Below, piece after piece: positions 49,733-60,144 of a DNA stretch of 64,000 nt; positions within the stretch are counted from its first letter, which is position 1, and every line of letters starts with the position of its first letter. Location of the stretch: the sequence record PQ805429.1; one strand, given 5' to 3'. Origin of the DNA: Escherichia phage EK5. The translations under genes were made by a program, and so were the position numbers. The notes under the pieces are model-generated. The model made no database searches, was not told where the DNA came from, and saw nothing but the letters and a program-made list of their open reading frames with translations.

Positions 49733-49760
49733 TTGACAGCCTTTTCCTTTATTATATAGT
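49733..49760 (+). promoter_or_regulatory. sigma70-like promoter
   Basis: TTGACA-16 nt-TATAGT, about 45 nt upstream of ATG 49805. Confidence 0.5.
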
Positions 49761-51315: not shown

Positions 51316-51681
51316 ATGGGTGTTATCAAGTTTGTAGTGAAAGTATTTGTAGGCTTCTTTCTGGTTGTTCTCCTGTTAGGTGTCCTGCTGTCATCTATGG
51401 GTAGCGTTAAGGCTGCAACATTTTCCCCTGATACGGTTGACGGTTTACAGTGCACCTATTTGATAGAAAACTATGAAACTGGTAAAAAGTCACCTAAAGT
51501 TATTATTTTACATGTGAATGATTTCGAACATGTACAATCATACGATAAAACTATTCAACTGGTAAATGAAACTACCGGTAAACAAATTACGGTGGATCAC
51601 TTGATGCGCTCATCGTTGACGCTCTTTGATGAGTCCATGAATGAAATGGCATCCGGTAACGGTCAATGTGTAAATCCATAG
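51316..51681 (+). CDS. exported protein (signal peptide)
   Basis: 121 aa; N-terminal FVGFFLVVLLLGVLLSSMGSVKA. Confidence 0.45.
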   Translation: MGVIKFVVKVFVGFFLVVLLLGVLLSSMGSVKAATFSPDTVDGLQCTYLIENYETGKKSPKVIILHVNDFEHVQSYDKTIQLVNETTGKQITVDHLMRSSLTLFDESMNEMASGNGQCVNP

Positions 51682-51757
51682 GCTTAATCTTTCTCCTGTA
51701 TTGTGCCGTAGTCATGCCTATGGTCATAATTTATCTGATTCTCTAATCCTTCCTGTA

Positions 51758-51784
51758 AGCCTCCTAGTGAGGCTTTTCTCTTTT
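51758..51784 (+). terminator. rho-independent terminator
   Basis: AGCCTC-CTAGT-GAGGCT followed by TTTCTCTTTT. Confidence 0.65.
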
Positions 51785-52589
51785 ATGAGGTGATTGTATG
51801 CCTTACTCCCTTTTAGCTCGTTGTGATGCGTTTTAGGCCGCTAAATATCGCTTTACAAGCCGTTTTCTATGATGTATCGCGTGCGCCTGCTCTTTTACCT
51901 TCCTATAGTGAAAAAGTTTAAAATAATTTGCTTTACCCTATTGCAACCTCATCTGATTAGCGTATACTTCATTTCATCGGGTACGATGTAAAACATACAA
52001 GGCAAGAAATTGCCCCGCTCTTTAAAAATATGATTTGTCTTACGGGTGGCGGCGACGTCATTACTATAAGGCGCTCAGTTAATCGGTAGAATTGATTCCT
52101 GATTCATACGTGACGCAGGCGGACAATAAGCAATATCAATAAGCCTTATTTGTTCGATACTTTCAAAAGATTAATGCTTGAAAGCGCACTAGATTCCCTG
52201 AAAGACAAATCAGACTTATCATCTTGCCCTTTCGCATAGATTCACGCGAGATAAGGGAAAGGAATTAAAAGAAGATGATAAAAAGAGTTGCAAACGTGGT
52301 TAAAGTAGTCCATACTAACCACAAGTTAGCAAAACATCGCTAACTAGTTCCCAAATCAACGTATCGCGGGAAAGGTGGCACATAGTGCAGCGATTAGTTC
52401 AGGTGTAGGCGGCCTGTTAATGAATCAGTAAGCCTTCAATGTGACAGTGATTAGCAGACACTTTAAAAGGCTAAACGCTCTTTAACAATATGAGTCATAA
52501 GTTAAGCCTCACCGCTTAATCTTCAATCAAATAAAGCTGATTGATATATCCTCCCAATAGCGGGAACGACGAAAAAGATTAAAAAGCGG

Positions 52590-52618
52590 TTGACAGCGAA
52601 AACAACATGATTCATAAT
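52590..52618 (+). promoter_or_regulatory. near-consensus sigma70 promoter inside ORF-free region
   Basis: TTGACA-17 nt-CATAAT. Confidence 0.5.
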
Positions 52619-53541
52619 GAGCACTCACTAAGCAAATCATCGCTTCAGTGAAAAGCGTAACAACGGCTAACAGTTGCATAGTGTGAGAAAGCACACTGAT
52701 AGATTTACCGCTCTTTAATAATTTAAACATTCTCCTATATCGGTTGAATATGCTTGATGATAATAACCATCGGAAAGCATACCAGATAAAACGGCGTAAA
52801 ACTCCCTAAATTATCAGGGTAAACAGTTTTACATTCCCTTACTGGAAACGTCACCATTGATAAACGGATTCATTGAGTACACGCAAAGACTTGAGCTAAT
52901 CGCCCACGGTTAAGGGTAGCGGCGGTCATTGCTAACACGGTGCTACAGTGAAAGAAGTTAATCAGGGTAGGCAATCCCGACGAATTAACGCTCAATTGAG
53001 AGCGGCGGGGAGTGGTTAAAAAGTGGCAAATTGCTATTTAACAATAAGGTTTAGTGTGAACGTTTACAATGTGAACGGCTTGAGATTCATCTTATGATGA
53101 AAGTACATAGTCGGTTTATGTAGTAAACTTGCCGAAAGATATAAAACGTCGGAACATTAGACGGTCAATGACTCTTTCGCAATAGTATCCCGTAGTGGGC
53201 GATGACTAGCGATTGAGAGTTGATATAAAAGGATAGGCGAGAGCGAAAGCAAAGTAAACGATATTGCCGACGGTTACAATAACGTAACTAATTAGAGTCG
53301 GACGCACTGCCTTATTGTGATGATTGATCATCGCTATCAGGTCGGCTTCGTTTATAGCGACTAATTAAAGATACCAGATGAAACATCACGGATAAGGGGG
53401 CGGCAAGGTTAACTCCTGATAAGACCGCCCCGCTTACCTATAACTACTTAACAACGAGTGGTTATAGTTAAGTTAATAGTGACTTAAACAAGCTCATAGA
53501 GAGCGGGGCAATAGCGCCCTTACAATTGAAAGGTGAATATT

Positions 53542-54441
53542 ATGGCTAAAATCTTTACTCTGGTTAACGAATCCGGTTTTAATGCTCTGGCTAACAACAT
53601 TCGCAGTAATAACGCGGCGATCAAACAAGATGTTTCTAACTTCCTGTTAGGTCATTTGCAGCACTTTCGTAGCAACGGTAAGAAGTTAGATGTATTGCAG
53701 GCGGCGGTTGACTTCCTGTTAACCGAACGTTTCCGCGATATGGATGTTATTGCCACCGCGATTACTTTCTTAACTCCTATCAAGTTTAACACCGATGCGG
53801 CAAATGGTCGTAAAAAGTGGATTAATCTGGAAGGTGAGGCGAAAGCTAAAGAAGATGCGAAAGAAGCGCAAATTAAGGCCAAAATGGAACAAAACCGCGC
53901 TCGCTGGTCAAACGCTTTCGAAAACTTTGCATTAGGTCGTGCAATTGAAGTGGATAATCCTAACTTCTACAAAGGTTGCAATGACAACGTGGCGGCACAC
54001 CTGCAAATTCCGGCGAAAAACAAGGAAGATTTTAATCAGGATATTTACGCTTTGGTTGAACGCTTGAATGCAATCCGTATTGAAGCCAAATTACTGGCTG
54101 ATGAGCGCAACGGCGCAACCAGCGATAACACTATCGCCCTGAGTGAAGAAGTTGGGAAGGTTAAAAAGTCCTTTGATTCACTCATCAAGAAAATCACGGC
54201 CTCGACGGTAGCGATCTCGGATGATTATCTGATGAACGCATCAAGCAAGGAATTAGAATCACTCGATTCATACGCTGATGAAATGGAAAAGACTGTTGCA
54301 GCTATGCAGGAGAAGTTAGAAAGTCTGCGCGGTCGTATCTCTTCAACGGTTGCTACCCGTAGCGAACAAGCGGCGAAAGCAGAAGAGGAAGAAGTATTGC
54401 GTAAAGCGGCTGAAATTATGGCGGCACGTCAAGCGGCATAA
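53542..54441 (+). CDS. hypothetical protein (coiled-coil C-terminus)
   Basis: Start moved to ATG 53542 after AAAGGTG. Confidence 0.5.
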   Translation: MAKIFTLVNESGFNALANNIRSNNAAIKQDVSNFLLGHLQHFRSNGKKLDVLQAAVDFLLTERFRDMDVIATAITFLTPIKFNTDAANGRKKWINLEGEAKAKEDAKEAQIKAKMEQNRARWSNAFENFALGRAIEVDNPNFYKGCNDNVAAHLQIPAKNKEDFNQDIYALVERLNAIRIEAKLLADERNGATSDNTIALSEEVGKVKKSFDSLIKKITASTVAISDDYLMNASSKELESLDSYADEMEKTVAAMQEKLESLRGRISSTVATRSEQAAKAEEEEVLRKAAEIMAARQAA

Positions 54442-54464
54442 GTAAGACAATTTAAATAAACATA

Positions 54465-54499
54465 AGGCGCTATCTTAACGGGTAGCGCCTTTTCTTTTA
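54465..54499 (+). terminator. rho-independent terminator
   Basis: AGGCGCTA-loop-TAGCGCCT followed by TTTCTTTTAT. Confidence 0.65.
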
Positions 54500-54552
54500 T
54501 CAGTGCATTGATTCAGTGCATTAATCAAAGAATCTAATTAAAGGTGACGATC

Positions 54553-55267: not shown

Positions 55268-55711
55268 GTGGCTAAATCTAAAATCAGCATGAAGGGCGGG
55301 CGTTGTTTTGCTATCTCTGAACTAGAGAAAGAGAAACCGAAGGCAACTAATCACGTTAGTAAGCGTAGTTTAAAACGTCGTGCTGCAAAGGCTGAGGCTG
55401 AATCCCATGTTCCTTCCAGTGTGGCAAAGCGTGTAGGCCATCGTGTCCATCGGGCTGATGCGTTGTTGTTGGCTGATCATAAACGTTCTTTGTTAAAGAG
55501 CGGGGGAGCTAAAACAGAAGAGGAGAAGAAGTTAGAAATCTTCTGTAATGGTCGCACCCGTGGTAAACAGAAGTTTAAAGGTAGCACGAAAGACCCGCAG
55601 GCTTTCCCTAAGACAAGCCAGTGTGCACCTGATGTTTTCTACGCAGATAGTAAACACAAGTGGGGCGTTGAAAAATACATTGACCCCATCAAAGAGGCAA
55701 GGGTTAAGTAG
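55268..55711 (+). CDS. basic hypothetical protein
   Basis: 147 aa, GTG start after AAGGAA. Confidence 0.4.
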   Translation: MAKSKISMKGGRCFAISELEKEKPKATNHVSKRSLKRRAAKAEAESHVPSSVAKRVGHRVHRADALLLADHKRSLLKSGGAKTEEEKKLEIFCNGRTRGKQKFKGSTKDPQAFPKTSQCAPDVFYADSKHKWGVEKYIDPIKEARVK

Positions 55712-60068: not shown

Positions 60069-60144
60069 GCACCCTTAGCTCAATGGACAGAGCAGCGACC
60101 TTCTAAGTCGTTGGTTACAGGTTCGAGTCCTGTAGGGTGCACCA
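60069..60144 (+). tRNA. tRNA-Arg (anticodon UCU)
   Basis: 7-bp acceptor stem GCACCCT/AGGGTGC, D-arm GCTC/GAGC, anticodon loop CTTCTAA, T-arm ACAGG-TTCGAGT-CCTGT, discriminator A and encoded CCA. Confidence 0.9.

Follow-up and report, generated by a model that had tools for sequence, protein, structure and literature searches.

We analyzed a 64,000-nt window of DNA from Escherichia phage EK5 (PQ805429.1) and found that the spacer between positions 51785 and 53541 is probably a transcription unit built like a ribosomal RNA (rRNA) operon of the host, i.e., one that is led by boxA elements and yields a functional non-coding RNA (ncRNA) early in infection. In this spacer, each promoter is coupled to a boxA plus a downstream RNA and gene. 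A first-pass annotation made from the sequence alone had listed ncRNA among its candidates, and this idea is strongly supported, since a large RNA that covaries massively takes up most of the region; that annotation had identified neither the repeat as boxA nor the extent of the RNA structure. Three sigma70 promoters have been reported in this spacer of SU10, as in phiEco32, with their sequences listed (PMC4281155). The three early promoters are therefore already published, and the new content lies in the boxA elements and the RNA. The RNA family is previously undescribed and unannotated, and rrn-type boxA modules in a virulent phage are likewise new; the literature searched, which did not include the primary phiEco32 papers, contains no mention of boxA or of a structured RNA in these phages.

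The window derives from a phiEco32-like Kuravirus and is reversed in orientation relative to the phiEco32 reference. Its gene-free gap corresponds to the phiEco32 gene 125/124 spacer (72787-74730 in NC_010324), with the gene 125 homologue at 51316-51681 and the gene 124 homologue at 53542-54441, both on the + strand. Escherichia phage phiEc_1 is 99.9% identical over the 1.9 kb that surround the spacer. Aligning the region to related phages, as had been proposed with the first-pass annotation, revealed that it is conserved in 97-98 phage records, every one of them an E. coli or Shigella phage of Gordonclarkvirinae (Kuravirus, Suseptimavirus, Nieuwekanaalvirus, and their relatives). The same annotation was right about the coding content and composition of the spacer. 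On the + strand, the longest open reading frame (ORF) between 51785 and 53541 has 40 amino acids and the longest stop-free run 48 codons, and the minus strand has a single ORF of at least 60 amino acids (67 amino acids, 52527-52730; stop-free run of 92 codons). CpG dinucleotides are enriched (observed/expected 1.27; whole window 0.67), a level that just 7 of 249 equal-sized windows match. The early region just downstream has a ratio of 1.05, and the phage genome overall is CpG-depleted.

Promoter-boxA modules and unit boundaries

Three copies of CGCTCTTTAA(A/C/T)AAT had been noticed in the first pass; they start at 52016, 52476, and 52709, the second of them 8 nt away from the position given earlier (52468). 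The motif CGCTCTTTAA(N)AAT is E. coli rrn boxA, whose sequence is GCTCTTTAACAA in the leader and GCTCTTTAAAAAT in the 16S-23S spacer. For this comparison the E. coli MG1655 rrnB sequences were read directly: the leader reads cacTGCTCTTTAACAAtttatcag and the 16S-23S spacer tttGCTCTTTAAAAAtctgg. The three EK5 copies are GCTCTTTAAAAAT, GCTCTTTAACAAT, and GCTCTTTAATAAT. The match to rrnB boxA extends over 13 nt in EK5, 18 nt in phage SU7, and 20 nt in the uncultured contig L041, and copies identical to the rrn leader occur in relatives (GCTCTTTAACAAtttatc in SU7 and NC-B; ...tttatcag in L041). The boxA consensus GCUCUUUAACAA is represented on the + strand by three exact matches to GCTCTTTAANAA, all within 700 nt, versus one other in the remaining 62 kb of both strands. 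With one mismatch allowed, GCTCTTTAANAA has 9 matches versus 2.3 ± 1.6 expected, and none of 100 shuffles gave as many. A fourth exact GCTCTTTAACAA is located on the minus strand (55490-55501), inside the + strand early gene cluster, and may be a chance occurrence or an antisense element. A near-boxA, GCTATTTAACAA (53033-53044), was rejected as a fourth copy, as it is imperfect and part of the covarying or invariant helices H18/H19; we read it from the alignment as a structural element.

Conservation was assessed in 14 phages and in a 23-sequence set consisting of these 14 and 9 uncultured distant relatives (plain MAFFT alignment). The elements of the array are:

51910-51968, + strand: promoter P1, 9/12 matches (promoter scan and alignment A5)
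52001-52014, + strand: boxB-like hairpin GGCAA-GAAA-TTGCC, 2 nt 5' of boxA#1 (read from the sequence; conserved in alignment A5, which offers no covariation)
52017-52028, + strand: boxA#1, GCTCTTTAAAAA(T), with 13 nt that equal the E. coli rrnB 16S-23S spacer boxA
52288-52316, + strand: putative promoter P2, TTGCAA-17-CATACT with an A-rich tract ahead (read from the sequence)
52477-52488, + strand: boxA#2, GCTCTTTAACAA(T), an exact match to the E. coli rrn leader boxA
52571-52618, + strand: promoter P3, the strongest, with an A-rich tract (52571-52586) and TTGACA-17-CATAAT (52590-52618); 11/12 matches in the scan
52679-52698, + strand: boxB-like hairpin (helix H2) ending 11 nt 5' of boxA#3; its stem covaries
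52710-52721, + strand: boxA#3, GCTCTTTAATAA, with a counterpart at the equivalent position in 23/23 sequences

Each EK5 boxA is found 50-190 nt 3' of a predicted sigma70-type promoter on the same strand, and the same holds for 14/14 relatives. In all 14 isolates, promoters (10-12/12 matches) alternate with boxA in 3-5 modules, the boxA following its promoter by 50-120 nt, always on the strand of gene 124; most of the 9 distant relatives show this alternation too. The 14 relatives and 9 distant relatives carry 1-5 boxA copies, nearly all of them behind such promoters. The counterpart of boxA#3 is the most constant element: GCTCTTTAA is invariant in 23 sequences, with position 10 being T or C, and in the distant relatives this core is unchanged though its flanks have diverged. 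Compensatory changes affect 3 of the 7 pairs of H2, and its loop, GAGAAAGC, is almost invariant (one G-to-A in EK010); the distant relatives carry a hairpin with an A-rich loop in the same place, its stem wholly different in sequence. No hairpin comparable to boxB was seen ahead of boxA#2.

P1 comprises an UP-like A/T tract (GAAAAAGTTTAAAATAATTTGCTTT, 51910-51934), a -35 hexamer TTGCAA (51941-51946), a 16-nt spacer, and a -10 hexamer TATACT (51963-51968). In alignment A5 (6 phages) its hexamers and A/T tract are invariant and its spacer is variable, a pattern that reads as the usual promoter signature. At the end of alignment A2 the -35 hexamer of P2 is conserved, either as TTGCAA or, in phiEco32, SU10, EK010, EP335, and Paul, as TTGACA. 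P3, whose hexamers the first-pass annotation had already pointed out, occurs in every relative compared, ~930-940 nt 5' of the gene-124 ribosome-binding site, and is identical to the SU10 promoter listed at 73511 (Table S2 of PMC4281155).

In comparison with phiEc_1, EK5 has one module fewer: a 109-bp segment with TTGACA-17-TATAGT and one boxA, present in phiEc_1 and most other relatives, is missing. The deletion junction is a 16-nt direct repeat (52014-52029) formed by two boxA copies, and the array thus changes through recombination of one boxA copy with another.

The boundaries of the unit and its gene are as follows:

51757-51784, + strand: intrinsic terminator, the 5' boundary, at the end of the upstream early operon (homologues of genes 128-125)
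53542-54441, + strand: gene 124 homologue, always 3' of the RNA; 299 amino acids, helical, with a long C-terminal coiled coil
54464-54501, + strand: strong intrinsic terminator (12-bp stem and T-run), the 3' boundary, after gene 124

The upstream terminator, which had been noted before, has the expected stem and T-run (7-bp stem AAGCCTC/GAGGCTT at 51757-51775), and terminators are annotated at the equivalent site in SU10 and SU7. In SU7 the equivalent of the 54464 terminator is annotated as well, with a promoter behind it. A terminator scan found none on the + strand between 51784 and 54464, and therefore the RNA and gene 124 are predicted to be co-transcribed. Since terminators occur only at the two ends, the promoter-boxA array, the RNA, and gene 124 read as one operon of ~2.7 kb, a single unit bounded by two predicted terminators.

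With regard to the upstream operon, it is headed by a near-consensus promoter, TTGACA-16-TATAGT (49733-49760, 11/12), which matches the SU10 'upstream of CDS125' promoter. The gene 125 homologue (51316-51681; 121 amino acids with a hydrophobic N-terminus) is called 'terminase' and the gene 127 homologues (small early proteins of ~85 amino acids) 'polymerase' in RefSeq/PHROGs; these names look like propagated mis-annotations.

The same layout extends to uncultured contigs whose gp124 homologues share only 47-70% identity with that of EK5 and for which the phage collection holds no close isolate. In each of the five contigs that extend far enough upstream, a gap of ~3 kb without genes precedes the gp124 homologue. 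In 9/9 distant contigs a boxA is found 870-936 nt 5' of the ATG, with a hairpin of unrelated stem ahead of it, and 8/9 carry further upstream boxA copies, mostly behind promoters; the ninth, L047, is truncated by the end of its contig. The distal ~1.5 kb of the gaps, 5' of the promoter-boxA array (L036:1455-3000, L037:1483-3200, L039:1063-3000, L041:1435-2900, and L044:1397-3000), show no long ORF, boxA, or Rfam match. At L041:3325-3387 a sub-threshold Rfam match to the Yersinia small RNA Ysr197 (24.5 bits versus a gathering score of 167) overlaps a boxA copy, and we suspect that it reflects rrn-leader-like sequence only.

Covariation and architecture of the RNA

The alignment of the 14 phages spans the P3 start site to the gene-124 ATG, and its consensus fold comprises 249 pairs in 40 helices, with 99.1% of the sequence-by-pair cells being standard pairs. 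It contains 65 compensatory pairs versus 26.8 ± 2.8 in shuffled alignments (0/500 reach the observed value), and slid controls, in which the 3' partner was moved by 1-3 columns, contain only 3-7. In the 23-sequence set the fold has 132 consensus pairs, with 94.6% of cells paired versus 37-45% in slid controls, and 98 compensatory pairs versus 55.7 ± 3.7 (shuffled) and 31-44 (slid). The covariation score is 0.484 versus ~0.09. The EK5 sequence alone folds with a z-score of -6.8.

Among paired cells, G·U amounts to 11.1% and A·C to 0.3%, and the consensus fold energy is -255.7 kcal/mol for the + strand and -184.1 kcal/mol for the reverse complement. This asymmetry, together with the fold energy, places the RNA on the + strand, co-oriented with the promoters; a minus-strand RNA was rejected on both counts. 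Variable sites are distributed over the codon phases as 122/115/110, without coding periodicity. Collectively, these comparisons strongly support the view that the region after the last boxA is a large, conserved, strand-specific structured ncRNA, and the substitution pattern speaks for strong purifying selection across the phage subfamily and beyond.

The main RNA (~0.85 kb, 52722-53520) begins after the last boxA. Its parts, and an accessory domain upstream, are:

52031-52281, + strand: domain 0, an accessory structured RNA (alignment A2) of most Kuravirus-type relatives
52722-53020, + strand: domain I (helices 4-17), closed by the long-range helix H4 (52722-52735 with 53007-53020)
53021-53318, + strand: hairpin H18 and domain II (53041-53318), helices 18-31 of the 14-sequence fold
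53319-53520, + strand: 3' hairpin array H32-H40, helices 19-25 of the 23-sequence fold
53497-53512, + strand: 'anti-boxA' TAGAGAGCGGGGCAAT (16 nt), 94% complementary to ATTGCCCCGCTCTTTA

The closing and inner helices of domain I are kept with covariation in the 23-sequence alignment (its helices 2-6). Domain II is closed by H19/H20 (53041-53058 with 53303-53318), and 23-sequence helices 7-18 cover H18 and domain II, with 4 covarying pairs in helix 8. The 3' array includes the GGGGCGG/CCGCCCC inverted repeat seen in the first pass, which is a real helix (53397-53403/53425-53431 within 53397-53431; 5/7 pairs covary), and a 10-bp hairpin (53438-53467); in helix 24 of the 23-sequence fold, 12/15 pairs covary. 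Domain 0 shows little variation, with 83 consensus pairs, 3 of them compensatory and few broken, and nhmmer did not detect it in the distant relatives.

The anti-boxA sits just 5' of the gene-124 ribosome-binding site and is the complement of a boxA together with the adjoining 5' flank. In the minimum-free-energy fold its partner is boxA#3, which makes the two a candidate leader-trailer helix, rRNA-like in design.

A covariance model (R1) built on the 3' third of the RNA reaches 179.7 bits in the window, still attains 114-135 bits in the most distant relatives, and has no match in phage 7-11, T5, or a T5-like Proteus phage. A covariance-model scan had been suggested with the first-pass annotation, and none of the Rfam 15 families was found: in the spacer nothing appeared at E ≤ 1 (sole hit BtsR1, 21.6 bits versus a gathering score of 66), and four distant loci likewise had no family match. 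The unmatched classes include GOLLD, ROOL, OLE, 6S, RNase P, transfer-messenger RNA, introns, and rRNA, among others. In the whole window only tRNA-Arg reached the gathering score, and a tRNA-Arg(TCT) gene is located at 60069-60144. A CsrA-sponge role was rejected, as GGA occurs 8 times versus ~14 expected and is not concentrated in loops.

The product of gene 124 is confined to the same phages as the RNA. Its AlphaFold2 model has a pLDDT (predicted local distance difference test) of 67. Pfam gave only a sub-threshold match to DUF3450, the PHROG family is one of unknown function, searching PDB sequences yielded coiled-coil noise, and Foldseek had no PDB match at E < 1.

Proposed mechanism and competing explanations

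boxA recruits NusB-NusE through an 8-nt recognition core (PMC3177189), and it shields long untranslated transcripts, i.e., rRNA and CRISPR arrays, from Rho (PMC7665894, 2020). Given these two functions, we infer that the phage uses the host Nus machinery for the RNA and gene 124. Early in infection, host sigma70 RNA polymerase would start at the tandem promoters P1, P2, and P3 (up to five in relatives), and the nascent transcript would soon expose a boxB-like hairpin and an rrn-type boxA. The boxA may then recruit NusB-NusE(S10), as in rrn operons and boxA-led CRISPR arrays, and together with NusA, NusG, and SuhB the polymerase would become a Rho-resistant complex that also aids RNA folding. 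It could thus complete ~0.9-1.6 kb of untranslated RNA otherwise open to Rho termination, run on into gene 124, and stop at the 54464 terminator. The main product would consist of domains I and II and the 3' hairpins, plus the lineage-specific 5' domain (52031-52281); it would act early in infection, perhaps after being freed by processing and perhaps in concert with gp124. The motifs, their order and conservation, and the secondary structure and strand of the RNA are direct results of this analysis. Nus-factor recruitment and Rho resistance at the phage boxA would hold by analogy with the host systems, and the RNA may be released or act in trans.

Several observations weigh against this rRNA-operon-like scheme. 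P2 is weak in EK5 (8/12 matches, under the promoter-scan threshold). No GU-rich boxC resembling UGUGUGGG follows the boxA copies (TATGATTTGTC, TATGAGTCAT, TTTAAACATTC), although boxC is not known to be needed for rrn antitermination. The leader-trailer pairing has no covariation support; the anti-boxA sequence is almost invariant, and because of this near invariance covariation cannot judge the helix. Another pairing, helix H3, which would join the flank of boxA#3 to the Shine-Dalgarno region of gene 124, was rejected, having no covariation and being broken in Bas88. Family, sequence, and fold searches gave no functional hint for gp124. Finally, no terminator or proven processing site parts the RNA from gene 124, so that the RNA could act in cis only.

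That last point is the core of a different and rather unlikely explanation, in which the RNA is only a giant cis-acting 5' leader of the gene-124/early mRNA that serves 5' protection, half-life, or gating of gp124 translation. The absence of a terminator between the two is what such a leader would show, as are the constant adjacency of RNA and gene 124, the structured hairpins that reach up to the Shine-Dalgarno sequence, and the ability of fold programs to join sequence near boxA to either the Shine-Dalgarno region or the anti-boxA. However, ~40 helices, two closed multi-helix domains, and conserved unpaired motifs exceed the needs of known leaders; the SU7 RNA has 89% nucleotide identity to the window versus 79% amino-acid identity for gp124; and the Shine-Dalgarno pairing in Bas88 is lost without compensation. 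The size of the RNA, its two closed domains, its conserved unpaired motifs, and a conservation at least equal to that of the neighboring protein speak against a spacer or a simple leader and in favor of a functional RNA. We hold more tentatively, with slightly less conviction than doubt, that it represents a new class of ornate phage RNA that hijacks the rRNA antitermination/chaperone machinery of the host and acts in trans, either as RNA only or as a ribonucleoprotein with gp124. Its possible roles would be host takeover, anti-defence, or catalysis; these phages stand out for their resistance to the defence systems tested (PMC11990801).

Tandem strong promoters ahead of a long untranslated structured transcript could also mark a transcription-activated replication origin with a structured primer or R-loop RNA, as in ColE1 RNA II or the T7 and T4 origins; the phiEco32 origin is unmentioned in the searched literature, and the spacer lies a few kb from a switch in gene orientation and GC skew. 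We regard an origin, which the first-pass annotation had also entertained, as improbable, because DnaA boxes, iterons, and an AT-rich unwinding element were not found in the region, its direct repeats, the boxA family apart, are short matches in two copies and probably due to chance, and selection acts on RNA base pairs over the full 0.85 kb and not on DNA motifs. In addition, the GC-skew turn at 48-49 kb coincides with the gene-orientation switch. It is more improbable still that the spacer is a decoy that soaks up host RNA polymerase or NusB/NusE and shuts down host rRNA synthesis, with the transcript as a by-product. The array on which that idea was based is real (3 promoters here, up to 5 in relatives), and 3-5 near-consensus promoters and 3-6 boxA copies per genome would suit a decoy, but nothing supports titration: 65-98 compensatory base-pair substitutions are not what one would see in a by-product, boxA copies vary freely in number (EK5 having lost one module), and phiEco32 gp79 already shuts off sigma70 transcription (PMC12276001). 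We give almost no credence to hidden small protein genes or to foreign DNA acquired by the phage. Small hypothetical coding sequences are indeed annotated here (e.g., 11 in CHD5UKE1, gp104 in SU7, and gp116 in Paul), but they are not conserved between records, the + strand ORFs have at most 40 amino acids, and the substitutions lack codon periodicity. An acquisition of non-phage DNA, another earlier suggestion, is refuted by the conservation of the region in 98 phage records and by its lack of similarity to any of 5,426 complete E. coli genomes and 72,556 PLSDB plasmids.

Other phages and known systems

Promoter-proximal boxA was also seen outside this subfamily. The T5-like Proteus phages PM135 (L019:5990-7060; MG030347 ~96.8-97.9 kb) and Stubb (L026) carry four sigma70 promoter-boxA modules in the pre-early A1/A2 region; one example is TTGACA-17-TATAAT with CGCTCTTTAACAAT ~20-25 nt past the start site. 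These modules directly precede protein genes and have no sequence similarity to the window; judged by their motifs, they are a separate instance of rrn boxA close to a promoter in a virulent phage. T5 itself (L048, NC_005859) has one hairpin-boxA, ggcgggaagtttaccgcc-ac-GCTCTTTAAAAA, at ~4988 on the minus strand, the strand of the pre-early genes, in the first-step-transfer (pre-early) region; no link between boxA and T5 was found in the literature searched. The pattern scan of viral contigs also returned AT-rich operator repeats of temperate phages (L020, L024-L029), which are unrelated.

Salmonella phage 7-11 has ~1.05 kb of non-coding DNA between the right genome end and gene 151, its first early gene (L035:48864-49916, minus strand), and this stretch has a better fold than its shuffled versions (z = -3.25). 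Perhaps a leader RNA of analogous kind, it has only 8 related records, too few for covariation. Homology of the EK5 RNA to this 1-kb leader was rejected, as nhmmer and the R1 model were both negative; boxA is absent from the last 50 kb of 7-11, the half of the genome examined, and gp124 has no similarity to 7-11 gp151.

Large structured RNAs of unknown function are rare, and GOLLD and ROOL occur in organisms that are hard to work with. The EK5-type RNA is found in virulent E. coli phages, and the relative Bas90 is 98.4% identical in the region. The BASEL collection includes relatives, Bas90 among them, that can be plated on a derivative of E. coli K-12 in which the O16 O-antigen has been restored, which puts deletion, probing, cryo-EM, and host-factor genetics within direct reach. 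At present, ~98 GenBank records leave these 1.8-2 kb unannotated or filled with spurious small coding sequences. If our proposal is true, virulent phages use the N-independent, rRNA-type boxA/Nus system, and this use may partly explain how phiEco32-like phages drive the host polymerase through long early units, a question also raised for phage 7-11 by the authors of its study (PMC8948821).

Among known systems, the boxA of CRISPR arrays and other long untranslated RNAs resembles that of EK5 in being a promoter-proximal rrn-type boxA ahead of a long non-coding transcript that would be a Rho substrate (PMC7665894). The EK5 RNA differs in being a single folded molecule rather than a repeat-spacer array, in having several boxA copies, and in its phage context. 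With the nut sites of lambdoid phages the array has in common that phage early transcripts carry a boxA and would use host NusB/NusE. A lambdoid nut site was nevertheless rejected, as it is defined by boxA followed by boxB, and in EK5 the hairpin comes before boxA; moreover, EK5 has the full rrn consensus and not the weakened CGCUCUUA of lambda, and it is virulent. We know of no N-like protein in these phages.

The T7 early region (A1-A3, an untranslated leader, and an RNase III site before gene 0.3) is similar in that three tandem strong host-polymerase promoters head an early operon and are followed by a leader. The T7 leader, only a few hundred nucleotides long, lacks a boxA array and is not known to form a large conserved fold. 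GOLLD and ROOL are comparable as large (>0.5 kb), multi-domain phage ncRNAs of unknown function supported by covariation. The EK5 RNA has no Rfam match, belongs to virulent podophages of Enterobacteria, and is not beside tRNAs; in addition, it is linked to boxA and, judging from its promoters, expressed early.

The closest counterpart is the rrn leader. The phage unit differs from it in lacking boxC, in repeating boxA 3-6 times with internal promoters, in co-transcribing a protein gene, and in making a product that is not rRNA and has no similarity to the Rfam rRNA families; moreover, it is an element of a virulent phage and not of the host. The two nevertheless share tandem sigma70 promoters with A/T-rich upstream tracts, a hairpin and then a boxA, identical in order and sequence (GCTCTTTAACAAT / GCTCTTTAAAAAT), a long, highly structured RNA that is not translated, and a 3' sequence complementary to the 5' leader.

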